A stretch of DNA of 64,000 nucleotides from an uncultured Chthonomonas sp. GTDB taxonomy: Bacteria; Armatimonadota; Chthonomonadetes; Chthonomonadales; CAJBBX01. Within the stretch, counting starts at the first letter, position 1. Each line of letters opens with the position of its first letter. The position numbers and the translations under genes are program-made. Location of the stretch: NCBI GenBank assembly GCA_903885605.1, contig CAISJD010000022.1:6437-70436 (forward strand). The letters are read 5' to 3'. The notes below the pieces were generated by a model. The model ran no database searches and was not told the DNA's origin. It was given only the letters and a program-made list of their open reading frames with translations. Below, one piece after another: positions 2,774-48,154 of this stretch.

Positions 2774-4012
2774 TCAGTTGTGCCTGAGCGCTTCAATCGG
2801 TTCCAGCCTCGACGCCTTGATGGCAGGTTGCAGGCTCGCGATGGCCGAGATGGCGACTACGATCACAGCAAGCGCCAGCACTTGCCCGATGCCGACGCTG
2901 GGCGCCAGTACGAGGCCGCGCTGCTGGCCGAAGTCGAAGGTGAGCTTGGCGATGCGGAGCGCACCGATCAAGCCCAGCCCAACGACAGTGCCCAGAAGCG
3001 TGCCCAGGGCGCCGAGGATCAGCCCTTCGAGAAGGAACATCGAGCGGATGGTGGCGGGCAAGGTGCCGATCGCCGCCATGGTTCCGATCTCCCGGACACG
3101 CTCGTACACGGCCATGATCATGACGTTCATGACGCTCACGAGCACGATGCTGACGAGGATAAGCCGGATAAAGATGGTCAGGATATCAATCATATTGGCC
3201 ACATTCGAGAACGGTGCGAGGCTTTCCCACGTGTGGACCTCGAAGGAGGGCTTCCCTTGCTTATTGCGCATGCCCCCCAGGCTCGTGGACAGGGCCGCAT
3301 AGGTGGCCTTCAGGCTGCCGAAGTCCTTGAGCCTCACCGCGATCTCGCTCACCTCCGGCTGGTCGAGCCGCAGGATTTCGGCAGCGTCGGACTGATGCAC
3401 ATAGGCGTCTCGGCCACCGGGGCCCGACACGCTGGCCAGGATACCGCCCACCTGCACCTGCTTGCCGTTCACAGACCCCTCGGCGTTGGTGGCGAGGAGA
3501 ACCACGGTGTCGCCGGGCTTGACCTGCATGCCGCGAGCCAGCAGCTCCGGCACAAGCATGATGCCGGGGCGGATTTCCGGTTTGCCCTGAACGACCCGAC
3601 CTTTGAGCATGGGCGCCGTGGCGAACTCGCGGTCGGGGTCCACGCCGTTGACGCGCACACTGGTGCTCTCGGTGAAGGTGCTGAAGACGCCCCCGAACTT
3701 GATCCTCGGCGAGAAGGCCTCGACAGCGTCGGACTTGCCCAGTTCGGCCTCAATCTTCTGGATCGCCTGCGGCTTCAGGTTCATGGCCAGCGGCAGCGTC
3801 TCGATCGAGGCGACGTATCCTTTGCGATGTATCTGCAGATGACCCAGCATGGAATCGGTGATCTGCCCGATCATCATGGCCTTGAAGGAGCCGGCCGCTG
3901 CCTCAAACACGAGCACGAAGAGCACGCCGATGGCGACCAGCGAGCCGGTAAGGAGCGTTCGCCGGCGGTAGCGTGATAGGTTGCGCAGGGCAATGATGAG
4001 GAGCTGTTTCAT
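2774..4012 (-). CDS. ABC transporter permease, FtsX/MacB-type
   Basis: N-terminal TM ([17 protein letters not shown]), large periplasmic loop and a C-terminal 3-TM FtsX-like block ([32 protein letters not shown]). ATGA overlap with the ATPase gene at 4009-4012. Confidence 0.8.
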
Positions 4013-4713
4013 GACGCCGCCCCCGCGCGCCTGTCTTCCACCGAGATCAACCGACCATCCTCCAGAGTGTACAAGACCTCAACCTGGTCGACCACCTTGG
4101 TGTCATGGGTGGAAAAGACGAATGAGGTGCCGAACTCGTCCTTCATGCGGCGCATGGTTTCGATCACCGCGAAAGCGGACGCATGGTCCAGGTTAGCGGT
4201 AGGCTCATCGGCCAACACCAGCTTGGGGCTGGTGACGAGGGCGCGGGCTACGGCTACACGCTGCTTCTGCCCACCCGAGAGCTGGTCGGGGAACTTGTCG
4301 CGCTGGTCTGCCACGCCGACCGCTTCCAGCAGCGCTGCCACGCGGCGCTTGCGCTCGTGCTCGGGCACGTGCTGCACCAAAAGAAGGGGGTACTCGACGT
4401 TCTCGCCGGCGGTGAGGGCCGGAATCAGGTTGAAATCCTGGAACACGAAGCCCAGGTGTCTGCCTCGGAACGCCGCCGCCGCCGGCCCTCTCAACTGCGA
4501 GACATCGGTCCCGGCGACGGCAAGGCGTCCGGAGGTGGGTTTGTCCAGGCAGCCAACCAGGTTGAGCAGCGTGGACTTGCCGCTGCCGGAGGGGCCGATG
4601 AAGGCGCTGAACGTGCCGGGCTCCACGACAAACCCCACGTCCGTGAGAGCTTGAAGCGTCATCTCGCCGGTCATGTACTGCTTGGACACGCCATCCGCAA
4701 CGATCAGGCTCAT
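4009..4713 (-). CDS. ABC transporter ATP-binding protein (LolD/MacB-like)
   Basis: Walker [13 protein letters not shown], signature [15 protein letters not shown] and Walker [21 protein letters not shown] 5 nt upstream of the ATG. Confidence 0.9.
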
Positions 4714-7753: not shown

Positions 7754-10153
7754 TTACGGCTCCATACTGCCGCTGTGATCTCCTCCTCGCAGGTTCAGGG
7801 TGGCGAAACGGCCTCGGCGCGTTGGAGCGCGGCGCGGCTTGCCGTCGAGGGTCAGCGCCGCGCCCTCGGCCGGCATGGGCAGGGCGAGCTCGGCGGTGAC
7901 GCCTTCCGGCACGCTGACCTTGAACCGTAGCCCACCGGAGAGGGTCCGCTCCCATGCGACCGACACGGGGCCGTGGCGCGTGCAGACGACGCCGCTCGCC
8001 TCGCGCAGGTCGGCCAGCCGGGGCTCGATCAGCAGGCGCTTGCGGCTGAGCGGGCCCACGCGACGGACGCCCAGCACGCGAGCGCTGAGGAACGCCGCCG
8101 GGATGGGGCCGAAGTCGTGGCAGTAGTAGCTCTCATCGCCGAACTGCTCGCCCAGCGTGCCGGGCATGGACCTGCCGACCATGCCGGCCCAGCGCCGCCG
8201 CATGGTCTGCAGCGCCTCCAGGTCGGCCGCATCGGTATCCATCTCGTACATGACCTCGAACGCGAAGAGGTACGAGACGGGGCTGAGGAACTCGTTGTGG
8301 CGCTCCATCAGGGTTCGCCGCACCATGGCCAGCCGGTCCGGCGGAACGAGCCCCTTGACGAGGGCCATGACGGTCGCCTGCGGCGTGGGCGGGAAGGCCG
8401 GGATTGACTGGTCGATGGCGGCGAAGTAGCGGTCGAAGCTCGCGTCGGGCCAGCGCGTGAGGAGCCTCTTCTCGCCCTCCTTGAGCCCCGCCAGGTAAGC
8501 GCCCTTCTCGGCGTCCCAGAGATGCCGGTTGAACGCCGCCGCCAGGTCGCGCGCCGCCCTGCCCCACCGGGCCGCCTGTGAGCGCCTGCCGGTGGAGGCG
8601 GCAAGGCTCGCGGCGTCGCGCAGCATGGAGTAGACCATGGCGTTGAGCGTGGCGCCCTCGCATTCGTGGAACGCGATGGGGTTGTCGAAGTGGAGGTAGA
8701 ACTCCCGCGCCCGCACCAGGCCCCGTTCCGTGCGCCGCGCCAGGAACCAGGCCACCAGCCGCTCCGTCACGGGCCAGAGGCGGTCCACCAGCGCGCGGTC
8801 GCCCGTGCCCTCGTAGACCAGGCGCAGAAGGTTAACCCAGCAGCAGGAGCTGTCCTCGATGAAGTTGTGGATGCCCCGCTCCATGTCGCGCGGACCCAGG
8901 TTCCAGTCGGTGGGGTGCCAGGCGCGGAGGAGGTTGTCGCCCTCCTGGCTGAGCGACATTCGCGACAACTGGTTCGCGAGCAGGCGCATGTCGCTGGAGA
9001 GCGGCCGCCCGGTACCGTCATCCGCGGCGAAGGCGACCTCCGTCACCGGGTAGTCGATGTGCCCCGTGACCCACTCGCCGCCCTCGGAGCCGTCGATGTA
9101 GCCGTCCACGGCGTTGACCTCGGCGGTGCGCACGGCCATCCCCCAGAGGCGGTTGAGGAACTCGTCACTGCTGTGGAACGAGCCGACCCGCTGGAAGGGG
9201 TACCGGCGCTCCACGGCGCCCAGGCCGCACAGCGTGACGCGGCCTCGCAGCACGCGGAAGGTGACCAGGCGGCAGGTGGTCTCGTCGGTGGTGCGGTAGG
9301 TTCGGCGCCCCGGCCGGTCGGCCGCCACGTAGCGGCTGCTGCCCATGAAGGCGGCGTCGCGGCCGGAGGTGCACTGGCGCGGAAGCATCTCGACCTCGGC
9401 CTCGCCGTGTGGCTCGAAGGCGGCCTCCAGCGAGGCGCGGCACATCTTGCCCAGGTCGAGGGTGACGGCCTCGTCGGGGCCCAGCTCCAGCGGCAGGGCC
9501 GCGTCGGTGGGCCGGTCGAGCGCCTCAGTGGCGTCCTTGCGGACGATGGCCACCAGGCGTCCGCCCTCGATGCGGTCCTGCGTAAGCAGCGGAATCGCCC
9601 GTGCCCGGAAGGCGCCCCAACGGTCGCCCGGCACGGCTACGGCGTTGGGCCAGGCCGTATCATCGAAGCCCGGGGCGGTCCAGTCGCCCGCTTCGCGCCG
9701 CTCGTCCACGCGGTCGGCCAGGCCGCTGATCAGCACCTCCGGCGGTCCGAAGCGCGTGGCTGCGCTGGTGCGCCATGTGGCGTCGGTGAGGTGCCGCTCG
9801 GTGCGGCCGCCGGTGCGCGCCTCCAGCAGGCAGCCGAGGCCCGGCTGGTGTCGGATGAAGCGGTAGTTGGAGAGGCGGCCGTAGACCAGCACCGCCAGCG
9901 TGTTCGGGCCGGCGGCCAGGTGCGGCCCAACCTGCAGCGTGTCGACCTCTGGGCGCTTGGGGTCGAACCGGTTGGGCCCGCCCGCCACCATGACGCCGTT
10001 GATCCAGAGCGTGTAGCGTGCGTCGGCGAAGACCTGCAGCGTCGCGGTGTCGGGCTTGCCCTGGAGGTGGACCACCTTGCGGAAGGCGACGGCGGTGGGC
10101 GTGGCGGTGTCGGCCGCGTCCCAGATCATGGCTTGCTGAAGGGCTGCGAACAT
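7754..10153 (-). CDS. cytoplasmic GH78-like (alpha-L-rhamnosidase-related, six-hairpin) protein
   Basis: N-terminal block LQVFADARYTLWINGVMVAGGPNRFDP resembles the rhamnosidase N-domain, followed by an (alpha/alpha)6-like region. No signal peptide. I place the start at ATG 10153 (MFAALQQ), which avoids overlap with the upstream gene stop at 10158-10160. Confidence 0.5.
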   Translation of the reverse strand: MFAALQQAMIWDAADTATPTAVAFRKVVHLQGKPDTATLQVFADARYTLWINGVMVAGGPNRFDPKRPEVDTLQVGPHLAAGPNTLAVLVYGRLSNYRFIRHQPGLGCLLEARTGGRTERHLTDATWRTSAATRFGPPEVLISGLADRVDERREAGDWTAPGFDDTAWPNAVAVPGDRWGAFRARAIPLLTQDRIEGGRLVAIVRKDATEALDRPTDAALPLELGPDEAVTLDLGKMCRASLEAAFEPHGEAEVEMLPRQCTSGRDAAFMGSSRYVAADRPGRRTYRTTDETTCRLVTFRVLRGRVTLCGLGAVERRYPFQRVGSFHSSDEFLNRLWGMAVRTAEVNAVDGYIDGSEGGEWVTGHIDYPVTEVAFAADDGTGRPLSSDMRLLANQLSRMSLSQEGDNLLRAWHPTDWNLGPRDMERGIHNFIEDSSCCWVNLLRLVYEGTGDRALVDRLWPVTERLVAWFLARRTERGLVRAREFYLHFDNPIAFHECEGATLNAMVYSMLRDAASLAASTGRRSQAARWGRAARDLAAAFNRHLWDAEKGAYLAGLKEGEKRLLTRWPDASFDRYFAAIDQSIPAFPPTPQATVMALVKGLVPPDRLAMVRRTLMERHNEFLSPVSYLFAFEVMYEMDTDAADLEALQTMRRRWAGMVGRSMPGTLGEQFGDESYYCHDFGPIPAAFLSARVLGVRRVGPLSRKRLLIEPRLADLREASGVVCTRHGPVSVAWERTLSGGLRFKVSVPEGVTAELALPMPAEGAALTLDGKPRRAPTRRGRFATLNLRGGDHSGSMEP

Positions 10154-10157
10154 GCCG

Positions 10158-11786
10158 CTACTCCTCGTCTCCCGGCTTGCGGCGCTCCAGGAAGCGCTGC
10201 CAGGCATCCATGCGGACCCAGAGCTGGGCGAAGACGCCGGGCCGCACCTTGTAGAAGCCGGTCATCAGGTGGTCCTTCAGCTTCTCGGTGAGGGCCTCGT
10301 CGTGGTCGCTGTGCGAGATCACCACCGGCGCGTCGGGGTTCGCAGGCACGGCGGCATAGTAGCCGACGCTGGCGGCGCCGCGCAGGTACCAGGGCAGGGG
10401 CCAGTAGTAGTTATCGGTCCAGATCACCTTCACGACCATGGCCCGGCCCGCGGCGTTGGCGTCGGCGATCTTCAGCACGCGACGCTGAAGGCGCAGGATG
10501 TCGCCCTCGGTATGTGCATAGACGTAGGGTGAGCGGGGATCGGCCGCCAGCGCGGTGGTCGCTTGCACAGCCTGAGCCGTCAGGTTCGCTCCGGCCGCGA
10601 GCAGCAGCAGGAGCGGAGCCACGCGGGCGCCGCCGGGCAGTCGGTCCCAGAGGGCCGCGAAGGCCGCGCCGGCGGGCACGCAGAGCAGAGCCACCAACGA
10701 GATGACGCACCAGGGCGTCTTGTAGGGGATCACGGAGTAGGCCGCCAGCATGAGCAGCGCCTGCAGGCCCGTCAGCCGCGTCAGCGAGGCCCGGTCTGCG
10801 GCCTGCGGAGTGGCGGGACGCGCGAGGAAGGCCCAGAGCAGGCCCAGCAGCGCCGTCCCCGCGATGGCCGCCTCGCTGAAGGCCGGTCCCCCCGGCTTGC
10901 GCGTCCAGAAGAGGAGGCCGATGTAGGTCCACCAGGGATGGATGTGCTCCGTGGCGCCTCCCGCGCGCTGCAGCCACGGGAGGTAGGTGCGGACGATGTC
11001 GACCGCCGCCTGCGGGTTGCGGAAGCCGCAGCTCAGGAGCCCCACAGCTGTGAGGAGCCCCAGCAGTAGCGCGGCGAGCCAGAGCCGCCACGACGCCGCG
11101 GGCCAGGGCGACGGAGGGCCGTCGCGCCGGACGCGCCGATAGCCGGCTTCCAGCGCCGGCGCGGCGAAGGCGGCGACCACCGCCACCACGGCGGTCTCCT
11201 TGGAGGCCTGCATGAGCCCCGCGCAGACCGCCGCGGCCATGAGCCAGCCCGATCTGCGCGTCCGAAGCCAGCGCCAGCCGCATCCCACGGCAGCCACGGT
11301 AAAGAGCGCCAGGAAGGTCTCCTGGATGTAGTACCGGCTGTAGTAGACCATCGAGGGGGAGGCCGCCGCCAGCAGCGCCGCCGCCACGATGCCCGGACGC
11401 CCAAGGCCCGGCGCGAAGAGCGCGTAGAGCAGCACCAGCAGCGCCCCCGCCAACGCAACGGGGAGCCGGAAGTCGCGCTCCTGAGTGGCCGCGAAGTCGG
11501 CTCGGTGCGCGGCCAAGACCGACGGGAGCGTGGCGTAGTAGAGGGTCGGGCCGTGGAACTCGTTTGGGTCGTAGGTGTAGCGGCCTGTGGTCCACAGCTC
11601 GGCGAACTTTGCGGTATGGACCGACTCGTCGGCATGCATGGGCCGCACACCCAGGTTAGGGAGCCGCAACGCCAACGCCAACCCCAGCGCAAGGGCGAGG
11701 ACCGCCGCCAGTCCAACCGCCGCCAGAGCTCTACTTGCCAAGCGCACTCCCCCTTTTTTCGGTGACACCCTCGGGAGTCTACCCAT
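10158..11786 (-). CDS. polytopic GT-C-type glycosyltransferase-like membrane protein (ArnT/PMT, TIGR03663-like)
   Basis: More than 10 predicted TM helices. The N-terminal loop PMHADESVHTAKFAELWTTGRYTYDPNEFHGPTLYY matches my memory of the TIGR03663 family. Confidence 0.55.
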   Translation of the reverse strand: MGRLPRVSPKKGGVRLASRALAAVGLAAVLALALGLALALRLPNLGVRPMHADESVHTAKFAELWTTGRYTYDPNEFHGPTLYYATLPSVLAAHRADFAATQERDFRLPVALAGALLVLLYALFAPGLGRPGIVAAALLAAASPSMVYYSRYYIQETFLALFTVAAVGCGWRWLRTRRSGWLMAAAVCAGLMQASKETAVVAVVAAFAAPALEAGYRRVRRDGPPSPWPAASWRLWLAALLLGLLTAVGLLSCGFRNPQAAVDIVRTYLPWLQRAGGATEHIHPWWTYIGLLFWTRKPGGPAFSEAAIAGTALLGLLWAFLARPATPQAADRASLTRLTGLQALLMLAAYSVIPYKTPWCVISLVALLCVPAGAAFAALWDRLPGGARVAPLLLLLAAGANLTAQAVQATTALAADPRSPYVYAHTEGDILRLQRRVLKIADANAAGRAMVVKVIWTDNYYWPLPWYLRGAASVGYYAAVPANPDAPVVISHSDHDEALTEKLKDHLMTGFYKVRPGVFAQLWVRMDAWQRFLERRKPGDEE

Positions 11787-11856
11787 GCGGTGCGCCGTAA
11801 GGGTATGTTAGGGTTCGGTCATCATTGGGGCGACGCTGCCCGCCAAGGAGAGCCGC

Positions 11857-12705
11857 ATGAACCTGCCCGATGCCGTGGGCCACCTCGGGGCCGCCCTCCC
11901 GCTCCTCTGCGCGACGCTGGCGCTGGCCTGTTGCGCCGCCGCGGCGCCCTCGCCCGAACCGCTCACGCTTCCTCTCTGGCCCCAAAGCGCTCCCGGCGCA
12001 CAGGGCAGCGCGGAGGCTGATCGACCCGAGATCACCGTGCATCCGGCTCCCAAGGGAAAGGCGACCGGCGCCGCAGTCATCGTCTGCCCCGGCGGCGGCT
12101 ACCACGCGTTGATGATGAGCTATGAGGGCCACGACATCGCGGCCTGGCTCAACGCCCATGGCGTGGCCGGCATCGTGCTGAAGTACCGCATCCAGCCTTA
12201 CCCGGCGCCGGTCTCCATCGCTGACGGCCGCCGCGCCGTTCGGTTGGTCCGCTTCCATGCAAAGGAATGGGGCCTCGACCCCAAGCGGATCGGCATGATG
12301 GGCTTCTCCGCCGGAGGGCATCTGGCCTCCAACGTCGGCACCAGCTTCGACAAGGGCGATGCTCGCGCGGCCGACCCGGTTGAGCGATTCAGTTGTCGGC
12401 CCGACTTCCTCGCGCTGGTCTACCCGGCAACGGACTATGCGGGGATGCCCCGCACGGAGGGCAACGTGACCGCGCAGACGCCGCCCTCCTTCCTGACGCA
12501 CTCGGCTCAGGACCAGACCGTTCCGGTGGAGCAGAGCCGCCGCTTCTATGCCGCGCTGCTGCGGCACAAGGTGCCGGCCGAGTACCTGGAGCTGCCCACG
12601 GGCGCCCACGGGCTCGGCTGCGGCAAGGGGCCGGAGTGGGAGGCATGGCAGAGGGCCTGTATCAAGTGGCTGGCCGGCCGGAAGGTAGCCGATACGAGCA
12701 AGTAG
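11857..12705 (+). CDS. secreted alpha/beta-hydrolase esterase
   Basis: AAGGAG RBS and a signal or lipoprotein-like N-terminus. Oxyanion-type VCPGGGYHAL and nucleophile elbow GFSAGGHL. Confidence 0.75.
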   Translation: MNLPDAVGHLGAALPLLCATLALACCAAAAPSPEPLTLPLWPQSAPGAQGSAEADRPEITVHPAPKGKATGAAVIVCPGGGYHALMMSYEGHDIAAWLNAHGVAGIVLKYRIQPYPAPVSIADGRRAVRLVRFHAKEWGLDPKRIGMMGFSAGGHLASNVGTSFDKGDARAADPVERFSCRPDFLALVYPATDYAGMPRTEGNVTAQTPPSFLTHSAQDQTVPVEQSRRFYAALLRHKVPAEYLELPTGAHGLGCGKGPEWEAWQRACIKWLAGRKVADTSK

Positions 12706-12727
12706 GCCGCCGGTACGCACTGGAGCG

Positions 12728-13630
12728 TTGATCGTGGACCAGACCAAACCGATGTACGAGCCGCTGGTGATGGACCCGGAGATGCGGGCGCAGGTGCTTG
12801 AGATCGCGCAGGTATACGCGACCAGCCGCCGCCTGATCGCCGCGGTAGATGCTCTGCTGGAGGATAGGCCCGACCACGCCTATGGTCCGCTGATCCATAT
12901 CCTGCGCGGGCCCAAGGTGCGGCCCATGTGGGACCTCCGCCTGGCGGCCATGTGCCTGCCCTACGCCGTCGGAACGCGGGAGCAGGCCCAGGAGGCCGGC
13001 CGCGCCCTGGTGGACGCCACTTGGCGGCGCCTCCGCAGGCCCACGGTCGTCGTTCCGCCTGCCGTCTATGCCGCAACGCTGCTGGGCCTCTTCATCCGCT
13101 TCCTCTTCAAGATGGGACGTGAGATGAAGGTGGCCGAGCTGCCTTTCTACGTCGCCATCGCGGCGTTTCCGCTGGCGTGGTATGTGATCGCCTGGCTACT
13201 CCCCGTCAACAGGAAAGAGCTTAAGCTGGCATGCCTGGGCGCGCTGACCGACCTTGAGGCGCCCGAGGGGCTGGCCATCGCCGTGCAGAGCCTGGGCCGG
13301 AGTTCGTCGCGCAGGTCTCGCAAGGCGGCCCACGCCCTGGTGCGGGCGGTTGCCGCCGGCGCGAGGCCCGAGGACTACGAACGCGTCGGCCCGCACGTCA
13401 TGGCGCACGTTGCCAGCCGGGCGGCCGATAAGCGCGACTGGGACCTGGTGCAGGTGGTGCAGGCCATGGGGCGCGGCGAGTCGATCCCCGCGATGGAGCG
13501 GCTGCTGGGGAAGACGGAGCCGGGACGACGACGGCAGAAGGCCCAGGCCGCGCTGGATGCGGCAACCGCGAGGGCCAATGCGGCGGGGTCAGCGCACGGG
13601 GAGCAGGTCGAGCAGCCTCCCGCCTCGTAG
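12728..13630 (+). CDS. hypothetical membrane protein
   Basis: Two central hydrophobic helices (VYAATLLGLFIRFLF and FYVAIAAFPLAWYVIAWLL) flanked by helical repeat-like regions. The start is uncertain: TTG 12728 or ATG 12752. The 3' end overlaps the convergent gene by 42 nt. Confidence 0.4.
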   Translation: MIVDQTKPMYEPLVMDPEMRAQVLEIAQVYATSRRLIAAVDALLEDRPDHAYGPLIHILRGPKVRPMWDLRLAAMCLPYAVGTREQAQEAGRALVDATWRRLRRPTVVVPPAVYAATLLGLFIRFLFKMGREMKVAELPFYVAIAAFPLAWYVIAWLLPVNRKELKLACLGALTDLEAPEGLAIAVQSLGRSSSRRSRKAAHALVRAVAAGARPEDYERVGPHVMAHVASRAADKRDWDLVQVVQAMGRGESIPAMERLLGKTEPGRRRQKAQAALDAATARANAAGSAHGEQVEQPPAS

Positions 13631-40964: not shown

Positions 40965-41918
40965 ATGGAACCTGCAAACGCCGCCTCAACGCCCTTCCGC
41001 GTCGTCACCTTCAACCTGCGCAACGGCCGCGCCGATGACGGCCCGGACTCGTGGAGCTTCCGCAGCGCCTGGGTTCCCGCCTGGGTCGCTGGACTGGGAG
41101 CCGACATCATCGGCCTACAGGAGGCGTTCCACGACCAGGCCGAGGCCGTACACGCGGCGCTACGAGGCTTCGTCCGCGCAGGAGTGGGGCGCGATGACGG
41201 GCTCCAGGCCGGCGAGTACTGCCCGCTCTACATCCGCTCAGTGCGCTTCGAGGCGTTGGAGGAGGGCACGTTCTGGTTCTCAGAAGCGCCCGGTACGCCC
41301 GGTTCCATGGCCTGGGGCGCCTCGCACCCGCGCATCTGCACCTGGGTGCGACTGCGCGACAAGGCCACCGGAGGGACGATGTGGGTCGGCAACCTGCACC
41401 TCGACCATGCTTCGCAGGAGGCCCGCCTCCGTAGCGCCGACCAACTGGCGGCCCGCGTGGTGGACTGGTCCCCCGAACCCGCCATCATCATGGGCGACTT
41501 CAACGTGGGCGAGGGCGACCCGGTCCTGGCGCGGCTGCTGCAGCCGGGCCTCCTCACCGATACCTTTCGGGGCATCCATCCGGACGCGGCAGACGCCTGC
41601 ACGTACCACGGCTTCCGGGGCGGCGAGGCAGGCGACAAGATCGACTACATCCTCGCAACGCCCGGCGTCCGCACGCACGGAGCTGCCATCATCCGCACGA
41701 CGCATCAGGGCCGCTATCCTTCGGACCACTACCCCGTGGCGGCCACGCTGACGACACAGGGGGAGAGGCATGGCTCAACGGCCTTGGAATGGGCTGTCGT
41801 CCCAGGGGAACCGAGACGCCGCGCCTCATCACCCCCACCCGCCGCCCCAGCAGGTACCATGCCTCTACATCCGCGATCGCTGGTCCGGACCGATGGCGAA
41901 GGGGAGTGCCTGCCATGA
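40965..41918 (+). CDS. endonuclease/exonuclease/phosphatase (EEP) family protein
   Basis: FRVVTFNLRNG at the N-terminus and ...YPSDHYPVAATL near the domain end. About 55 extra codons run through direct repeat L to the TGA of ctgccATGA. Confidence 0.8.
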   Translation: MEPANAASTPFRVVTFNLRNGRADDGPDSWSFRSAWVPAWVAGLGADIIGLQEAFHDQAEAVHAALRGFVRAGVGRDDGLQAGEYCPLYIRSVRFEALEEGTFWFSEAPGTPGSMAWGASHPRICTWVRLRDKATGGTMWVGNLHLDHASQEARLRSADQLAARVVDWSPEPAIIMGDFNVGEGDPVLARLLQPGLLTDTFRGIHPDAADACTYHGFRGGEAGDKIDYILATPGVRTHGAAIIRTTHQGRYPSDHYPVAATLTTQGERHGSTALEWAVVPGEPRRRASSPPPAAPAGTMPLHPRSLVRTDGEGECLP

Positions 41919-41939
41919 ATCGTCGCGAGTTCATCGGAA
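41822..41939 (+). repeat. direct repeat L (118 bp), left boundary of the 5.3-kb insertion
   Basis: Base-by-base comparison with 47273-47390 gives 113/118 identical in the same orientation. Confidence 0.9.
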
Positions 41940-42004
41940 TCCCGATGGCGGGCATAGAGGGCGGCTCTGGTCTGGTAGTTCTGGGCAGCAGGTCGGCTGG
42001 GTAG
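41915..42004 (+). pseudogene. orphaned 5' fragment of the NIPSNAP gene (first 9 codons, then unrelated sequence)
   Basis: MNRREFIG matches the start of the intact gene at 47366. The sequence diverges after ttcatcggaa and stops after 29 codons. Confidence 0.6.
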
Positions 42005-42230
42005 AGCCTTCTCCAAGGTTTGCGGGCATGACACACCCGAGCCTGCCGGCGGACGGACACGCCCGGCGGAGCTTCTGCGATGGCGGTTGCTGGCGGCCTT
42101 CGGGCTCGATCCCGGGCACAGCCACTGGATCAGGTCGTCGGCTCCCGCCTGGTCGGACGGCGCCGCCCCCACCGAGGCATCCCGTGGCAGGAGCCCGAGC
42201 GGGGGCGGCTCTCAACATGAAGACGATGAC

Positions 42231-42533
42231 CTAGAACGCCACGAAGACGTCAGTGCCGATGACCACCTGATCGCCAGAGAATCCGCCAACAGGGTCTGTC
42301 GCCGGGCGTGCGATCGCCACCTCCAGAACCGCCAGAGCAACGCCCACAACCCGCAGCGTAGGACCCCTCCCGGCCGGTCGCCAGTACCGTTCAAGCCACA
42401 CCGTGACGGTACCACACATGTGGGGCGGGAAGGGTCGGGTTCGGATGGGCTCGTTAGCCTGAATGCCGCTGAAGGTTTGAGCCCAAGTGGCCCGCGCGGC
42501 GGAACCCAGCTCGCGGCTGATTGAGTAGCACAT
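42231..42533 (-). CDS. hypothetical 100-aa ORF divergent from the kinase gene (possibly a gene remnant)
   Basis: Moderately GC3-rich with a beta-strand-like C-terminus ...GDQVVIGTDVFVAF. No RBS seen and no family recognised. Confidence 0.2.
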   Translation of the reverse strand: MCYSISRELGSAARATWAQTFSGIQANEPIRTRPFPPHMCGTVTVWLERYWRPAGRGPTLRVVGVALAVLEVAIARPATDPVGGFSGDQVVIGTDVFVAF

Positions 42534-42601
42534 CAGCCAGCTTCAGATCCAAGGGTATCCTAACAGCGAACTGCGCCTACACCAACGAGGGTAGCTGTCC
42601 A

Positions 42602-43996
42602 ATGCCGACTGCTGTGCTGAAATCGCCTCCCGCCGGAATGCCGACCAGTATCGTCCTCACCGACCGAACGCGCGTCGGAGGCGAAGGTACGGTCCACTTC
42701 AGTACTGACGGCAAGTATGCGATAAAGGTCTACCACGGGACCCCGGTCGAGCGAGAGAAGCTGCTCGGCTACGTGATGACCATCTTCCGGACGATACCCC
42801 GCGACCAAGAGCGTTACATACTGCCTCCCCTGGCTCTGGTCCAGTCGCTCAACGGGAAGCCGTGCGTCGGATTCGTAATGCGACGGGTCGAGGACAGGTA
42901 CCGCGAACTGGTGGATTTCGTACTCCACCCGGCAGCGGCGGCGGCGCAGTTCAAGCAGGGACGCACGTGGGCCGACTATCTGAAACTCGCCCGCAGCATC
43001 AGTAGCGCCCTGGTCGTCCTGCACGGCAAGGGCTGTGCGCATAGTGACATACACTTCAGTAACTTCCTGGCCGACCTCCGCGATGGCTCGGCAGTTATGC
43101 TGGAGGTCGATGGTGTCGTCGTGCCTGGGTTTCTGCCGGCCCAGGTCGCCGGGATGGCGGGTTTCATGGCGCCGGAGATCGTGCACCGGAAGGCGCGGCC
43201 CGACGAGCGCACGGACCGCCACAGCCTGGCGGTCTTGGTCCTCCATACACTGCTGTTCCGCAACGCCATGCAGCCGCTCATCGACTATGCAACAGACCCC
43301 GAGACGAGCGAGCAACTGGGCTGGGGAGAGATGGCGCTCTTTAGCGAACACCCAGCCGACCGACGCCATCGGCCAAAGGCGCTCGGCGTGCCTCTCTTCT
43401 CGCGCGGCTGCCTTAGCTACACCATGCTGACCGAGGAACTCCGCCGTCTCACGGATCAGGCATTCATGGCAGGCCTGCGAGTGCCAGACGACCGGCCGAC
43501 CTCACGTGACTGGGAGCGAGCGCTCGCTTGCGCTATCGACGAGCTGTGGCCCTGCACCCGGTGTCGGCAGTGGTTCCCGTATCCACACTGGTTGGTCCCT
43601 GCGGAGCGCCGCACCTGTCCCTTCTGTGGTATGCGGATCAGCCCCCCGGCTCCCGTCGTCCTGCGTCTCTTAGAGGAGCGCGGCAAGACCGGCTTCTACA
43701 CCACCCATCGGCGGGTGGTCTTGGGCTCTGGCTTCCGGCTGTATGCGGACGTCGTCGATCCATCCAGGGTGCCGCCGCCTTCCCGGCAGCAGGAAGGGCA
43801 TGTAGCTCATGTCGAATGGGATCGTGTCCGGTGCACATGGCGGCTGGTGAACGACAACGCCGGTGTGATCACGAGTTCAGTGGACGGCGCCCGACAGGAG
43901 GCCCGCAGGGGTTCCAGCATCGTTGTGGAGCAGGGCGCCCAGATCCATTTCGGCCCTGGCGCTAGGATGGCCTTAGTGGTGCAGGCAGGAGCGTAG
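42602..43996 (+). CDS. Ser/Thr protein kinase-like protein with a C-terminal zinc ribbon and FHA-like domain (TerY-P/YegI-type)
   Basis: Beta3 Lys context GKYAIKVY, catalytic loop HSDIHFSNFL (HxDxxxxN) and activation-segment end GFMAPE. The Zn ribbon is CTRC...CPFC. The C-terminal 110 aa follow an FHA-like pattern (HVAHVEWD..WRLVNDNAGVITSSVDG...IVVEQGAQIHFG). I place the start at ATG 42602. Confidence 0.75.
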   Translation: MPTAVLKSPPAGMPTSIVLTDRTRVGGEGTVHFSTDGKYAIKVYHGTPVEREKLLGYVMTIFRTIPRDQERYILPPLALVQSLNGKPCVGFVMRRVEDRYRELVDFVLHPAAAAAQFKQGRTWADYLKLARSISSALVVLHGKGCAHSDIHFSNFLADLRDGSAVMLEVDGVVVPGFLPAQVAGMAGFMAPEIVHRKARPDERTDRHSLAVLVLHTLLFRNAMQPLIDYATDPETSEQLGWGEMALFSEHPADRRHRPKALGVPLFSRGCLSYTMLTEELRRLTDQAFMAGLRVPDDRPTSRDWERALACAIDELWPCTRCRQWFPYPHWLVPAERRTCPFCGMRISPPAPVVLRLLEERGKTGFYTTHRRVVLGSGFRLYADVVDPSRVPPPSRQQEGHVAHVEWDRVRCTWRLVNDNAGVITSSVDGARQEARRGSSIVVEQGAQIHFGPGARMALVVQAGA

Positions 43997-44107
43997 CGGA
44001 ATCTCCGAGCAGGGCTTCCGGTTTGTGCGGTGTTCCGAGAGTACGTAGGCAGACCAGTCCGGTTGCGGCGCACCCCATGCGCCCTTCGCACGAAAGGAGC
44101 TGACCAG

Positions 44108-44800
44108 ATGACTGATTTCGATATGAACGTCACGATGGGTGAGGGTGTACGGCGGCTGCCGGTGTACCTCTTGCTCGACTGCTCCGGGAGCATGGGTGGC
44201 GCGCCGATTGAATCGGTGAAGCGCGGTGTCGAGTTGTTCATCAGCGAGGTTGCCGGGGATACGTACGCCAGGCAGACGGTGCATGTCGGTGTGATCACCT
44301 TTGCCAGCGAGGCAGCTCTCGTGACCAAGGGCCTCGTGCCCTTCGACGCCTTCACGATGCCGACCCTGAGTGCGAGCGGCACGACGGCTCTGGGTGGCGC
44401 GCTACGGTTGCTGCGGCAGTCGCTTGACTCGGACCTGAGGAAGTCGGTGCCCGGCGGCGAGAAGGGCGACTGGAAGCCACTGGTGTTCGTTCTGACCGAC
44501 GGGGCGCCGACCGATGCATGGCAGGAGCCGCGTCAGGACCTCCTCAGTCGCCAGAGCGGTAAGGTGATCAACATGATCACGGTCGGATGCGGCACCGGCA
44601 TCAATGAGGAGCAGATCAAGGCGATCGCCATCGGTCCGACCTTTCGCATGGATGCAACGGAAAGCTCATTTAAGACATTCTTCCAGTGGGTTTCGCAGAG
44701 CGTTAAGGCCGTAAGCAAGGCCGTCAGCCAGCCCGATGCCGGGCAGGCGCCGAGTGCCATGCCACAGCCCGACCCTGCGGTGATCCAGTACGTTCCATGA
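44108..44800 (+). CDS. von Willebrand factor A domain protein, TerY-like
   Basis: AAAGGAG RBS. The MIDAS motif sits in LPVYLLLDCSGSMGG, with SASGTTALGGAL and VFVLTDGAPTD further on. Confidence 0.85.
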   Translation: MTDFDMNVTMGEGVRRLPVYLLLDCSGSMGGAPIESVKRGVELFISEVAGDTYARQTVHVGVITFASEAALVTKGLVPFDAFTMPTLSASGTTALGGALRLLRQSLDSDLRKSVPGGEKGDWKPLVFVLTDGAPTDAWQEPRQDLLSRQSGKVINMITVGCGTGINEEQIKAIAIGPTFRMDATESSFKTFFQWVSQSVKAVSKAVSQPDAGQAPSAMPQPDPAVIQYVP

Positions 44801-45918
44801 AACCGGTACGGGGGAGCAGCCCGGCAGAGACGGGTATGGCACTCGGGGATCGTCCGCTCTCGATGGCGGGTGATACACATCCGGACTGGTTGGCCGCGCA
44901 TGGTCAGGTGGGTGCGTGGTCCATCGTGGCCGCTTCGGCGGTGGGCCAAATGCACCTCCGCGACCAGACCCCGCGAGACGATGCGTTCTCCGTTCGGGCC
45001 ATAGGACCCTGGCTGGCTGTGGCCGTGGCCGACGGTGCGGGTTCTATGCGTCGCTCCCGCTACGGGGCGGCCTTCGCTGTAGACACGCTTACCGAGCGGC
45101 TCCTCTGTGCCGTCTACGATGCGGCTCCGGCCGACGATCCCGGCCCTACCGGGCCCGGCCCTGACGGCCCTACGCCGCCTTCAGGTCCAGGGCTCCTGAG
45201 CCGGCTCGTGCAGTCACTGCCTGCACGAACGAAGGTCATTGACGGGCCCTCGGTTGTCGGGTTCGACGAGGTGGCCCTGCGGGAACCACGCGTCGAGGCG
45301 AGCGCCTGCTGGGCGTCCGTGGCGTGGCGCAGGCCCGACGCACCGGCACAACCTGCGGCGCTCGACATGGTAGCGCCGTCGCTCTCCGCGGCGGTCCGCT
45401 CGGCGTTTGGTAGCACGCGGGCTGAGTTGGAAGGCTATGTCTCGCGGCTCGGTGTCCCCTTGCGCGACATCCACTGCACGCTGATGTGCGTCCTGCTTGA
45501 CACTCGCACAGGCGCGTTCGCCGCCGGGCACATTGGCGACGGCCTGATCGCGGCGCTCCATCCGGGTTTCGGTGCGAGACCGGCGGTGGAGCCGCCGAGC
45601 ACCGGCAACGTGGGCGAAACCTACCTGATCACTCAGGATGGATGGGAACGGTACCTGGCGGTCACAGAGTCATCGCCCGCCGAGGCCGAAGGCATTTCGA
45701 CCCTGTATCTGATGTCGGACGGCGTGGCCGACGACTGTAGCCACCCGCCGCCGCCGGGCGTGTTCGATCGCTGGGCCCGCGATATCGATCGCGAGGTCCG
45801 CTCCTCCGCCGGCGCAGGCACGTCGGCAGTCAGGCTCGTGCGGTGGCTGGCCAACTACGAGCTCCCGGGCAGTTGGGATGATCGGACGCTGGTCGTGTTG
45901 GCGAAGGTCGGCGAGTAG
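44797..45918 (+). CDS. PP2C-family protein phosphatase (PP2C_2-like)
   Basis: ATGA overlap with the vWA gene. Motifs SAVGQMHLRDQTPRDDAF, LAVAVADGAGS, HIGDGLI and LMSDGVADD, with a Pro/Gly-rich insert. Confidence 0.8.
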   Translation: MKPVRGSSPAETGMALGDRPLSMAGDTHPDWLAAHGQVGAWSIVAASAVGQMHLRDQTPRDDAFSVRAIGPWLAVAVADGAGSMRRSRYGAAFAVDTLTERLLCAVYDAAPADDPGPTGPGPDGPTPPSGPGLLSRLVQSLPARTKVIDGPSVVGFDEVALREPRVEASACWASVAWRRPDAPAQPAALDMVAPSLSAAVRSAFGSTRAELEGYVSRLGVPLRDIHCTLMCVLLDTRTGAFAAGHIGDGLIAALHPGFGARPAVEPPSTGNVGETYLITQDGWERYLAVTESSPAEAEGISTLYLMSDGVADDCSHPPPPGVFDRWARDIDREVRSSAGAGTSAVRLVRWLANYELPGSWDDRTLVVLAKVGE

Positions 45919-45923
45919 GCCTG

Positions 45924-46727
45924 ATGGCAGAGGAGCGGTCCTGTTTCGTGGCGCCGGACCAAGCGGGCCTCCTCCTCAGCGAGCTGGCACAGGCGGTCGC
46001 CGATGGCAGGCGTCTCGGTTCCAGCGAGATCTCGCAGATCGTCTCGCGGCACCTCGCCGGTTCCTCGGATGACGCCCTGCCCCGAGTCGGCGAGTGGTAC
46101 CGGGTTCTTGTCGATGCTCCGCGCCGCAGGGGGCACGACGCTGAGTACGCAGTCGTGACGCGCCTGATGGGTCTCGGCGTGCCGGAAGCGCCGGCGTTAC
46201 TCGCTGTCAGTGTGGCCCGATCTGCCTCGATCCCCAACGCGAGTGGCGAGTCTGGTGTATCTTTGGGAGCCGCTTCGACGAGCACGCGTCGTGCCGGCGA
46301 TGGGGTGCGTTGGTCGGGGTCTGCGTACAGGTCCCGCGCGCCGAGCGCCAGTGGGGTCAGCCCTGCTTCCGCTCCTCCTTCTCCTGTGGTCGGGCGGACG
46401 GCGTCCCCTCAGCAGGGCTCGTCAGTTCGGGGCGGGCAACTTACGCGGCCTGGCAAGATTCCTCTGGCCCGACCCAACAGGCGTCAATCACGAGCAGCTT
46501 TGCTATGGCCAGTGCATATCTATGCCTTGTATATCCGGAAGTCATGGTCAATCATGCTGAGTGTGCCACTGCTGAGTCCTCAAACTTCAGGCGACATTAC
46601 CAGCACATCTGATGCTATTAGATATGGTGCCATGTTAATAGTCACTGGCGCTGTAATGTGGCATCCTTTACGGTTGACATGTATAATGCTATATACTATC
46701 TACACATTCATCAGAGGAATTATATAA
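45924..46727 (+). CDS. hypothetical protein; only the first ~95 codons look confidently coding
   Basis: Starts 5 nt after the PP2C stop. GC3 is high up to about 46200. A Ser/Pro/Gly-rich low-complexity stretch follows, then a hydrophobic tail encoded in the AT-rich segment. The true 3' end is unclear. Confidence 0.35.
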   Translation: MAEERSCFVAPDQAGLLLSELAQAVADGRRLGSSEISQIVSRHLAGSSDDALPRVGEWYRVLVDAPRRRGHDAEYAVVTRLMGLGVPEAPALLAVSVARSASIPNASGESGVSLGAASTSTRRAGDGVRWSGSAYRSRAPSASGVSPASAPPSPVVGRTASPQQGSSVRGGQLTRPGKIPLARPNRRQSRAALLWPVHIYALYIRKSWSIMLSVPLLSPQTSGDITSTSDAIRYGAMLIVTGAVMWHPLRLTCIMLYTIYTFIRGII

Positions 46728-46728
46728 T
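46701..46728 (+). promoter_or_regulatory. sigma70-like promoter candidate (TACACA-N16-TATAAT) in the AT-rich cassette
   Basis: TATAAT is at 46723-46728 and the -35-like TACACA at 46701-46706. The GCACAT...ATGTGC inverted repeat around palindrome TGCGCGCA (46735-46758) lies just downstream. Confidence 0.3.
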
Positions 46729-46785
46729 GTGCACGCACATGCACTGCGCGCAATGTGCTATAGAGAATCGGGTGATAGTGCTCCC

Positions 46786-47106
46786 ATGATAACATTAATC
46801 ATGTTAGGCATTGCATTGATCGTTCTGGTATTTATGGTGGGGGCGGCATTGGTGGCAGGCTTGGGGTACGCCGCCATGGCTCTGCTGGGGATAGCATGGT
46901 CCTTCAGTGATAATATTCCCAGGATCATAACAATTATTATATTGTACGGTGCCCCGATTGGTGCCGTAGTGGCTGTAATCTATTACTATTTTGGTTGGTT
47001 GCCAGCCCAAACTCGAATGCTCGCATGTGCAGCAATAGCGGTTGCTCACGTTGTTGGCATCATCTGGACCCTTCGGCGACCCGTGCCGGCCAAGCCAACG
47101 AGGTAA
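46786..47106 (+). CDS. small multi-pass membrane protein (about 106 aa, 3-4 TM helices)
   Basis: The translation is strongly hydrophobic and periodic: ITLIMLGIALIVLVFMVGAALVAGLGYAAMALLGIAW, RIITIIILYGAPIGAVVAVIYYYFGW and MLACAAIAVAHVVGIIWTL, with a basic tail RRPVPAKPTR. The start is ATG 46786 (or GTG 46729). It is encoded in DNA of about 46% GC. Confidence 0.45.
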   Translation: MITLIMLGIALIVLVFMVGAALVAGLGYAAMALLGIAWSFSDNIPRIITIIILYGAPIGAVVAVIYYYFGWLPAQTRMLACAAIAVAHVVGIIWTLRRPVPAKPTR

Positions 47107-47272
47107 GTTATCTTCAGGCCTGTTCGCAGTATGGCGGATTGGCGGTTCGGCGTGCGCCAACTGGTGCTGCGCCCCGCGTCACATCGGCGGCGCCGGCTCC
47201 TTCGGTCTTCTCGCGGATTGGGCGGCTGGAGATCGGCATTCTTCTAGCCCATCGCCTGTTCGCTTCTCCCGC

Positions 47273-47390
47273 CGCCTCATCACCCCCACCTGCCGCCCCA
47301 GCAGGTACCATGCCTCTACATCCGCGGCCGTTGGTCCGGGCCGATGGCGAAGGGGAGTGCCTGCCATGAATCGTCGCGAGTTCATCGGAA
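47273..47390 (+). repeat. direct repeat R (118 bp), right boundary of the insertion
   Basis: 113/118 identical to 41822-41939. It contains the ATG and first 9 codons of the intact NIPSNAP gene. Confidence 0.9.
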
Positions 47391-48154
47391 GCTCGGCTGT
47401 GGCCGTGGGAGCCGCGGGGGCGTTGACGCTGGAGCCTGAGGCCGAGGCGGCCGCCGTGATCCGGGAGGTCTACGAACTGCGGCACTACAGGCTGAAGCCG
47501 GATGCCGCGCCGGACGGCCTGCTGGACTACTTCGCCAAGGCGCTCATTCCCGCCGCAAGGCGGCAGGGCCTCGGTCCGGTGGGCGTCTTCACGGAGCAGA
47601 AGCCCTCGGCCGAACCCACGGTGACGCTGCTGCTGGCCTTCCCGGCCATCGCTGCATTCTGGGCGTTCGCCGACAAGCTGGCGGCGGACAAGGAGTACCA
47701 GAGCGCCGGCGCGGCGTATGTCGGCGCGTCGCCCCAGTCGCCCGCCTACGCCCGCATCGAGAGCTCGCTGCTGGCCGCCTTCGCCGGCATGCCCCGCGTC
47801 GAGGCGCCTGATACGGCCAAGGAGCGCCAGTTCGAGCTGCGGACCTACGAGAGCCACAGCGAGGCCGCCCACGCACGCAAGGTGGGAATGTTCAACGACG
47901 GCGAGATCGCCATCTTCCGCCGCTGCGGCCTGGCGCCCGTCTTCTTCGGCAGCACGCTCATCGGCACGCGCCGGCCGAACCTGACCTACATGCTCACCTA
48001 TCCCGGCCCCGCCGAGCGCGCCGCCGCATGGGGCAAGTTCATCAACGATCCCGAGTGGAAGACGCTGAGCAAGACCCCGGGCCTCACGGACCCCGAGGTG
48101 GTCTCGAAGATCACCAGCGTCACGCTGATCCCGGCCGCCTGCTCGCAGATCTAG
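47366..48154 (+). CDS. NIPSNAP family protein with a TAT-type signal
   Basis: MNRREFIGSSAVAVGAAGAL is twin-Arg-like. Two NIPSNAP-type repeats (VYELRHYRLKPDA and FELRTYESHS). Confidence 0.8.
   Translation: MNRREFIGSSAVAVGAAGALTLEPEAEAAAVIREVYELRHYRLKPDAAPDGLLDYFAKALIPAARRQGLGPVGVFTEQKPSAEPTVTLLLAFPAIAAFWAFADKLAADKEYQSAGAAYVGASPQSPAYARIESSLLAAFAGMPRVEAPDTAKERQFELRTYESHSEAAHARKVGMFNDGEIAIFRRCGLAPVFFGSTLIGTRRPNLTYMLTYPGPAERAAAWGKFINDPEWKTLSKTPGLTDPEVVSKITSVTLIPAACSQI

Follow-up and report, generated by a model that had tools for sequence, protein, structure and literature searches.

Within the 64-kb window, by which we mean the whole stretch of DNA that was analysed, an island carries the genes of a Ser/Thr kinase, a TerY-like vWA protein and a PP2C-family phosphatase, followed by two further open reading frames, ORF4 and ORF5, all on the + strand. 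The island is bounded by direct repeats of 123 nt each (41822-41944 and 47273-47395, both annotated without strand), which repeat search and pairwise alignment show to be 94% identical. The left copy duplicates the 5' leader and the first eight codons (MNRREFIG) of a NIPSNAP gene, while the right copy leads into the intact NIPSNAP gene at 47366-48154. ORF4 and ORF5 are both flanked by these repeats, in agreement with the initial annotation, which placed them in a repeat-bounded insert. The same sequence, with one SNP, is found in at least nine contigs from independent assemblies, which excludes an assembly chimera. The known copies are near-identical, belong to one population and differ by that one SNP, and they give no measure of selection on the ORF4 tail or on ORF5.

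The kinase (42602-43996, + strand; the longest ORF starts at 42521) matches Pfam Pkinase with E 1.3e-6 and 28.4 bits, under the cut-off of 31.7, and its translation, with motifs read by eye, contains the HSD catalytic loop, a C-terminal zinc ribbon of the CxxC...CxxC type (CTRC-x17-CPFC) and a further C-terminal region. The stand-alone vWA protein (44108-44800, + strand; longest ORF from 44030; Pfam VWA, E 8.3e-15) has the MIDAS motif DCSGS as well as GTT and TDG, again as read in the translation. The phosphatase (44797-45918, + strand; Pfam PP2C_2, E 1.5e-26, 93.7 bits) has 137 homologues, the best of which are 43–52% identical. All three features that define a TerY-P triad are present, namely a stand-alone MIDAS vWA, an adjacent PP2C and a kinase–zinc ribbon protein. 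Identity to four closer related loci is 58% for the kinase, 64–69% for vWA and 44–49% for PP2C, and to the Oscillatoria locus (L015) it is 43%, 47% and 30%, respectively. The catalytic and MIDAS motifs are kept in all three proteins, so the module as a whole is not decaying. GC3 is 0.77-0.79 in the triad genes and 0.81-0.93 in the flanking host genes. The TerY-P models of PADLOC-DB v2 match neither vWA nor PP2C at E <= 0.1, and the kinase is hit in PADLOC by generic kinase models only, for example PD-T4-6, MkoA and mad6.

The initial annotation regarded such triads as canonically made of three genes, which is correct as the literature definition (PMC11090510) but does not hold for the subfamily to which this locus belongs, where the number is regularly four. 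Of 19 related loci, 17 have a fourth gene beside those for vWA, PP2C and kinase, and the remaining two are contigs of at most 2.7 kb. It is present in all seven loci chosen solely by PP2C similarity, and scans based on its N-terminal domain (N-domain) brought in 12 further loci, ten of them with triad genes in the retrieved flanks and the other two on contigs of at most 2.7 kb. In L004, L008, L024 and L026 the fourth gene directly adjoins PP2C or overlaps with it, and the order kinase-vWA-PP2C-fourth gene is common to the last three of these and is also the layout in the window. The triad subfamily is widespread, with members in Armatimonadota, Oscillatoria, Anaerolineae MAGs and many metagenomes.

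The family of fourth proteins, which we define from about 20 genes in the 19 loci, has a common layout: a helical N-domain of ~100 aa, a short Pro/Ala linker, a beta domain of ~85 aa with the motif FGELxPG...GGPG...FG...W, and a variable, ligand-binding C-terminus, which can be FGE-sulfatase, WD40, Sel1/TPR, beta-helix or another module. The C-terminus is demonstrably a swappable cassette. Wherever there is enough sequence the beta domain follows the N-domain (71–147 bits with its HMM), the exceptions being ORF4, copies with frameshifts in L017 and, in L023, a stub of 60 aa. None of the 18 fourth proteins of the relatives contains a transmembrane-grade segment, for which we used the usual threshold of 1.6 for the 19-residue Kyte-Doolittle mean (KD19), and these proteins are soluble. 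No match to the N-domain exists in Pfam at E <= 0.01, not even with the EAD models, and the family with its two conserved domains was found neither in the literature searched nor among Pfam models. The N-domain and the beta domain probably dock the protein onto the phosphorylation switch, with the variable end providing target recognition; the variability of this end and the three paralogous copies of the gene in some loci are consistent with such a role.

ORF4 (45924-46727, + strand, 267 aa) begins, as originally noted, 5 nt past the PP2C stop (TAG GCCTG ATG), and the GC3 of its N-terminal ~95 residues, initially called host-like, is 0.79 (residues 1-95), in the range of the triad genes. Its residues 1-99 (45924-46220, + strand) correspond to a diverged N-domain of the fourth protein. 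With hhalign, residues 11-99 align to a 10-sequence N-domain profile with a probability of 91.7% and E 7.6e-7, in register and N-terminus to N-terminus. When the window is cut into 1128 six-frame pieces and searched with the N-domain HMM, ORF4 ranks first (hmmsearch, E 8.5e-4), with a score of 15.7 bits that is weak compared to 68–164 bits in intact members, and blastp/tblastn link it to L025 and L018 with E 4.7e-6 to 4.4e-5. It retains 15 of the 23 family columns conserved at 90% or more. Identity to four of five relatives is 26–31% (the fifth value, 43%, is a short local match); the N-domain of L015, a locus with more distant triad proteins, is still 54–60% identical to most other relatives and 41% to L008. 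The divergence in ORF4 would fit relaxed constraint or a changed role. The GC content by codon position (0.78/0.51/0.79) is of the coding type, and a single-sequence AlphaFold2 model has five helices with block-mean pLDDT of 68-86 over residues 11-90. These comparisons at the sequence level identify ORF4 as the fourth gene of the module, with the N-domain as its sole surviving part, far more diverged than its three neighbours, and they support its assignment to the triad. Neither ORF had been recognised initially; this now applies to ORF5 alone, as ORF4 has conserved homologues beside the triads of the 17 loci and ORF5 has none.

Direct homology searches with ORF4 returned self matches only, and an exhaustive phmmer search with residues 1-110 failed to bring up the family, yielding, apart from ORF4 itself, two repeat proteins matched by chance, one with SH3b repeats and one resembling a tape-measure protein, which we rejected as relatives. 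ORF4 has no match in Pfam, NCBIfam, PADLOC or PHROGs, a sequence search of the PDB was without significant result for ORF4, for ORF5 and for the profile of the fourth-protein family, and Foldseek with the single-sequence ORF4 model (mean pLDDT 55) found no match in the PDB at E <= 0.001. A frameshift was suspected since the GC maximum changes codon phase at ~46200, but we rejected it: the other frames contain stops or give implausible translations, and a composition rich in Ser/Pro/Gly/Ala/Arg, by lifting GC at the second codon position, accounts for the phase change.

Where its relatives have the short linker and the beta domain, ORF4 has a low-complexity stretch over residues ~100-175 (46221-46450, + strand). 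The Ser/Pro/Gly-rich linker reported here is real, with S, P, G, A and R making up 72% of residues 96-190; GC by codon position is 0.64/0.79/0.65 and pLDDT is below 50. The beta-domain HMM, which scores all intact members, is silent in ORF4 and in all frames over 46200-47300. No C-terminal binding module was detected either, as a Pfam domain in ORF4 or as a tblastn remnant downstream. From about codon 96, native fourth-gene sequence is gone. A MAFFT alignment hinted at a leftover of this domain in the tail, which we rejected, as neither hhalign nor the beta-domain HMM supported it. The remaining tail (residues ~176-267, 46451-46727, + strand) was described as hydrophobic, which is right as to composition (49% hydrophobic residues over 191-267) but does not by itself make it a membrane anchor; its maximal KD19 of 1.51 is below the threshold and no higher than in the soluble relatives. 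No homologue of the tail turned up among 5.8 billion proteins or in collections of metagenomic, viral, plasmid and phage sequences. Its second codon positions are T-rich and A-poor, and the frame stays open over 46450-46724 in 0.7% of composition-matched shuffles (p about 0.007).

The tail and ORF5 are contained in an AT-rich patch at 46400-47100 (without strand), defined from composition profiles with GC of about 0.43-0.55. With ~650 bp it has the lowest GC of the entire window, where the mean is 0.688 with an sd of 0.039, and GC3 drops to 0.43 in the ORF4 tail and 0.54 in ORF5 compared to 0.77-0.93 elsewhere. The ORF4 frame passes from the low-complexity stretch into the patch through an in-frame junction. 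The patch has no match in plasmid and phage DNA, no second copy within the window and no RNA match in Rfam. We also considered a MITE or an IS, neither of which is evident, as there are no terminal inverted repeats. Probably the patch entered at a later time, from a source with low GC. The drop in GC to 0.43-0.52 over ~46400-47000 had been overlooked in the initial annotation.

ORF5 (46786-47106, + strand, 106 aa) is, as proposed, a small protein with 3-4 predicted transmembrane helices, from both hydropathy (GRAVY 1.41, maximal KD19 2.98) and single-sequence AlphaFold2, which places helices at 2-38, 44-68 and 74-97 with a mean pLDDT of 72.5. The frame is open in 0.2–0.6% of composition-matched shuffles (p 0.002-0.006), and its second codon positions are 44% T and 9% A. 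A Shine-Dalgarno-like GGTGAT lies 9 nt before the ATG, with the identical hexamer 13 nt before the PP2C start, and an alternative GTG start is found at 46729, 1 nt past the ORF4 stop. Promoter-like TATAAT boxes precede ORF5 at 46682-46687 and 46723-46728, but every promoter match falls in AT-rich DNA, in which hexamers of this kind are to be expected. In most assemblies the gene callers did not annotate ORF5. Searched against 5.8 billion proteins it finds only itself; no relative appears in metagenome, viral, plasmid and phage collections, and no family in Pfam, NCBIfam, PADLOC and PHROG. A small multi-pass membrane ORF is absent from all 19 related loci. ORF5 is an orphan and shows no sign of belonging to the kinase/vWA/phosphatase system.

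What are ORF4 and ORF5 then? We favour, with moderate confidence, the reading of ORF4 as a truncated fourth gene, in which foreign DNA has taken over the 3' part, with the tail and ORF5 as passengers. The kinase/vWA/PP2C subfamily normally has a fourth protein, of which ORF4 retains the N-domain only, the native 3' part being gone from about codon 96. In this scenario the AT-rich patch would have been brought in later from a low-GC source. The hydrophobic tail and ORF5 would then most likely be passengers of this replacement, outside the mechanism of the triad, and the triad itself has probably lost its specificity component here. The earlier proposal of a membrane effector controlled by kinase, phosphatase and vWA is not borne out: the fourth proteins of the relatives are soluble, ORF4 has lost the rest of its gene and ORF5 has neither homologues nor co-occurrence with triads, so what is left for this idea is position and orientation. 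Several observations do speak against this reading. Both hydrophobic frames are longer than expected by chance, their second codon positions resemble those of real membrane proteins, the reading frame is kept across the junction, ORF5 is preceded by the Shine-Dalgarno-like hexamer or else the GTG immediately after the ORF4 stop, the triad motifs are kept, and the N-domain frame is intact with triad-like GC3.

Several of these observations bear on a rewired membrane output, a refined form of the earlier proposal, in which the C-terminal module would have been swapped for the hydrophobic tail, with ORF5 as its membrane partner; we consider this unlikely, as we do its mechanistic extension, that the N-domain may still dock on the kinase/vWA/PP2C switch and control a membrane-damaging or membrane-anchored effector. 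Consistent with both are the open frames with their membrane-type codon periodicity, the in-frame fusion of close-spaced and co-oriented ORFs, the 15 conserved columns kept in the N-domain, the swappable nature of the family's C-terminus and the apparently intact triad enzymes. However, no family member has a transmembrane-grade segment, ORF4 lacks the beta domain found in every intact relative, its tail peaks below the KD19 threshold, ORF5 is found in no related locus and in no database searched, GC3 of 0.43-0.54 indicates no adaptation to the host, and the N-domain is unusually diverged. Its most specific form takes the fourth protein as a docking domain joined to an exchangeable cassette for output or recognition, and the window as a case of recent cassette exchange. 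A soluble binding domain would have given way to the hydrophobic tail and a 4-TM ORF5, and this lineage alone would have gained a membrane effector under the control of phosphorylation; this appears doubtful to us.

It is less probable again that ORF4 functions as a small regulator consisting of the N-domain and a disordered tail, for instance as a decoy or by competing for the docking site, and that ORF5 is unrelated and separately expressed. The predicted five-helix fold, the triad-like GC3 and the tight coupling to the PP2C gene would suit such a regulator, as the TATAAT boxes would suit separate expression of ORF5. However, the related loci contain no intact stand-alone N-domain protein, their short forms being frameshifted or stubs, the divergence of the N-domain suggests lost constraint rather than a conserved docking surface, and the promoter hexamers are those expected of AT-rich DNA. 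Finally, it is very improbable that ORF4 resembles the family by chance and that both ORFs are spurious frames in non-coding island DNA: the low HMM score, the failure of phmmer to recover the family and the omission of ORF5 by most gene callers would fit, but the profile-profile match in N-terminal register, the location directly after the PP2C gene as in the relatives, the gene-like GC by codon position and the improbability of the open frames all argue otherwise.

On the truncated-gene reading, ORF4 of the window is, taken alone, probably a gene end that has decayed or been rearranged, and not a new effector. Its significance comes from the family. The conserved domain pair, variable binding end and multiple copies of the fourth protein are the signature of a specificity component, which makes it a testable candidate in the search for the signal or target of the kinase/phosphatase/vWA switch, and the window copy, as a natural truncation beside an intact triad, offers a useful 'sensor-less' comparison. 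To our knowledge, TerY-P-type modules have been defined as three genes without an assigned sensor or effector.

How does the locus compare with known systems? ORF5 resembles the small membrane effectors of Abi systems in being small, with 3-4 predicted transmembrane helices, and in lying beside a putative signalling module, but it differs in having no family match, no conservation with the module and a foreign composition. The multi-pass character of such effectors is seen in ORF5 and not in the ORF4 tail (maximum 1.51), and co-occurrence is not seen. The TerY-P triad (Anantharaman, Iyer, Aravind 2012, as summarised in PMC11090510 and PMC4978471) is a three-gene unit that sits beside varied partner modules, the partners described in the sources read being DNA-processing, restriction (CoCoNuT) or WXG100/FtsK modules. 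Our locus likewise combines a TerY-like vWA, a PP2C and a kinase–zinc ribbon protein in one co-oriented cluster, but its partner is one protein family and its gene order is kinase-vWA-PP2C. The validated anti-phage TerY-P systems, according to PMC11090510, have a kinase with an OB fold (Gao et al. 2020); the three enzyme or domain types are the same here, with a zinc ribbon where the OB fold stands. The vWA and PP2C of the window are unmatched by the PADLOC TerY-P models, and any defence role of the subfamily is putative.

In Deinococcus radiodurans the DRA0331-DRA0334 operon encodes a vWA protein, an STPK, an FHA protein and a KI-FHA-PP2C protein (bioRxiv 10.64898/2026.01.23.701218). It is similarly a four-gene vWA/kinase/PP2C set, where the extra protein is a docking and regulatory partner of kinase and phosphatase; that protein is FHA, which Pfam does not detect in ORF4 or its relatives. 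Actinobacterial GAP1-N2 GTPase systems have been reported with adjunct clusters of a kinase–zinc ribbon–beta-rich domain protein, a PP2C and a stand-alone vWA, in work that also describes FGS (FGE-sulfatase) 'neutralising' effectors and effector-associated domains (Kaur, Burroughs, Iyer, Aravind 2020; PMC7159879). Unlike those systems, the window and the related loci inspected contain neither a GTPase nor a MoxR or STAND NTPase. The kinase architecture and the gene trio are nevertheless identical, and the fourth proteins share with those systems the variable C-terminal FGS, WD40, TPR and beta-helix modules, combined with a small helical N-domain that may serve as an adaptor.

The kinase (42602-43996), vWA (44108-44800) and PP2C (44797-45918) genes of the TerY-P-type triad lie within a 5.3-kb island (41945-47272) between two 123-nt direct repeats (41822-41944 and 47273-47395, 94% identical to each other), which also holds two further forward-strand frames, ORF4 (45924-46727, 267 aa) and the small ORF5 (46786-47106, 106 aa; a GTG at 46729, one base past the ORF4 stop, is an alternative start). 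ORF listing and direct reading confirmed this layout after the PP2C gene as initially annotated. The repeated unit corresponds to the leader and eight initial codons of the NIPSNAP gene downstream, and at the left island end its duplication leaves a truncated pseudo-start (MNRREFIG...). The island contains no integrase or transposase, and the genes neighbouring it are metabolic, not defence. Ahead of the kinase gene, the ~580 nt that follow the left repeat (41945-42520) hold no convincing gene and no Pfam match; they weakly resemble the gene that sits before the kinase in loci from Armatimonadota (tblastn E 0.16) and, at 42271-42459, the beta-domain HMM described below (E 0.13), and these matches may be relics of a former gene order. 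Most public assemblies give the PP2C gene a length of 183 aa, others 373 aa; the long form aligns to homologues across 95-99% of its length and carries a Pro/Gly-rich insert at about residues 110-135.

The initial annotation recognised neither ORF, which no longer holds for ORF4: it is homologous, by sequence and by position, to a conserved fourth component of the module. With the PP2C protein as query we took seven homologue contigs on similarity and contig size alone, and all seven show a vWA-PP2C pair followed by one to three genes with a common ~100-aa N-terminal sequence (N-domain). Three of these related loci (L008, L024, L026) have the kinase gene upstream, as in the window, and in the others it sits a few genes farther down. 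The PP2C and fourth genes are directly adjacent or overlapping in L004, L008, L024 and L026 and no more than about 300 nt apart in L006 and L025. ORF4 aligns in register with this domain (for example LMGLGVPEAPALLAVS in ORF4 versus LMLRGVPEAPARLAVE in the relatives) and keeps 15 of the 23 family columns with at least 90% conservation. Profile-profile comparison matched its residues 11-99 to the N-domain (91.7% probability, E 7.6e-7), the N-domain HMM ranked it top among 1128 six-frame pieces of the window (E 8.5e-4), and blastp/tblastn gave 4.7e-6 and 4.4e-5 against L025 and L018. When the family alignment was run against collections of genomes and metagenomes, it added 12 loci, found on an Anaerolineae chromosome, in two genomes of Oscillatoria, in MAGs of Armatimonadota and in metagenomes. 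In the fetched flanks, ten of these have homologues of the window vWA, PP2C and/or kinase; neither of the remaining two contigs is longer than 2.7 kb.

Wherever a family gene has sufficient sequence, a short Pro/Ala linker joins its N-domain to a ~85-aa beta domain (motif FGELxPG...GGPG...FG...W; 71-147 bits against its own HMM), and a variable C-terminus comes after that: FGE-sulfatase in L003, L006 (two copies), L021 and L022, right-handed beta-helix in L011, L015 and L026, Sel1/TPR in L009, WD40 in L020 and unassigned domains elsewhere. Pfam models gave no match to the N-domain or beta domain at the thresholds used. ORF4 lacks both downstream parts, which every intact relative has; neither the beta domain nor a C-terminal domain was found in any frame across 46200-47300. 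The only other exceptions to this architecture are clearly damaged: a 60-aa stub (L023) and three copies with frameshifts (L017). The surviving N-domain of ORF4 is also unusually diverged, with identities of 26-31% to four of the five relatives compared (the 43% to L003 stems from a short local match), while the window triad is 58% (kinase), 64-69% (vWA) and 44-49% (PP2C) identical to four closer relatives. For the Oscillatoria locus L015 the triad values drop to 43%, 47% and 30%, yet its N-domain remains 54-60% identical to most other relatives (41% to L008). L017 (CP059258.1, Anaerolineae SSC4; 8001-12800 and 3096-4295), where the three frameshifted fourth-gene copies and a PP2C gene broken across several frames lie next to intact-looking kinase and vWA genes, provides an independent case of this module in decay. 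In L006 (8404-13119) and L007 the PP2C and kinase genes flank a tandem array of three intact fourth-gene paralogues. Two of these carry FGE-sulfatase and the third has another C-terminus, a pattern that suggests diversification of the variable component.

The three-part make-up ascribed to ORF4 is borne out by composition. Residues 1-95 have a GC3 of 0.79, like the triad (0.77-0.79) and near host genes (0.81-0.93); residues 96-190 (GC3 0.62) are 72% Ser/Pro/Gly/Ala/Arg, a make-up that drives up GC at the second codon position. A frameshift at the GC phase change near 46200 was rejected, as amino-acid composition accounts for the shift and the other frames are implausible. The replaced region is compositionally foreign: residues 191-267 (GC3 0.42, 49% hydrophobic) and ORF5 (GC3 0.54) fall within a patch of 43-52% GC (about 46400-47000), the lowest in the window (mean 0.688, sd 0.039), and nothing in its GC3 points to adaptation to this genome. 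Plasmid and phage collections hold no DNA similar to the patch, and it has no Rfam match, no terminal inverted repeats and no second copy within the window. Exact ORF4 is present on at least nine contigs from independent assemblies, evidently of one population, so the transition into AT-rich DNA is genuine; the single SNP among public copies of the region (46488 T/G, S189A in the low-complexity stretch) leaves these contigs too alike for any selection test. The ORF4-tail and ORF5 frames speak against mere junk: they are improbably long for their composition (open in 0.7% of shuffles for the ORF4 tail and 0.2-0.6% for ORF5), their second codon positions are T-rich and A-poor as in membrane proteins, and an SD-like GGTGAT lies 9 nt upstream of the ORF5 ATG; therefore, the patch encodes, or recently encoded, hydrophobic protein. 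Promoter-like boxes upstream of ORF5 all sit in AT-rich DNA and carry little weight.

ORF5 itself remains an orphan. Against 5.8 billion proteins ORF4 and ORF5 each match only themselves, exhaustive phmmer with ORF4 residues 1-110 returned chance repeat proteins only, Pfam, NCBIfam, PADLOC and PHROG have no family for either, and the ORF4 tail and ORF5 have no relatives in metagenome or viral contigs. As to the proposed membrane-effector add-on, ORF5 is indeed strongly hydrophobic (GRAVY 1.41, maximum 19-residue Kyte-Doolittle mean 2.98; three long helices in a single-sequence AlphaFold2 model, pLDDT 72.5), but it is not conserved with the module, as none of the related loci carries a small multi-pass ORF close to it. 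None of 18 family members has a transmembrane-grade segment (top mean 1.49 or less), and the ORF4 tail peaks at 1.51, under the usual threshold of 1.6. In the main rival reading, the replacement would have produced a functional variant directed at the membrane and partnered by ORF5. This would fit the intact triad enzymes, the in-frame ORF4 fusion and the coding-like periodicity of the patch frames; we consider it rather unlikely. We lean towards a reading in which the fourth protein gives the module its specificity, with a docking N-domain and beta domain that carry an exchangeable binding domain, and in which the window copy would have been truncated when foreign DNA replaced its 3' part. 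What the window carries is probably a degraded instance.

Among papers covered by full-text search, none linked vWA, PP2C and kinase with FGE-sulfatase, or TerY and PP2C with sulfatase; the original 2012 TerY-P paper may already have noted the association. The triad (vWA, PP2C and kinase with zinc ribbon) fits the published TerY-P definition (PMC11090510, PMC4978471), but is unmatched by the PADLOC models of experimentally validated TerY-P systems: PADLOC v2 gave no match at E <= 0.1 to the vWA and PP2C (44108-45918), and triads of this subfamily would therefore be missed by that defence-system annotation. A specificity role for the fourth protein would agree with how FGS, WD40 and TPR modules of related conflict systems are interpreted (PMC7159879), and also with the idea that TerY-P acts as a phosphorylation switch (PMC11090510).
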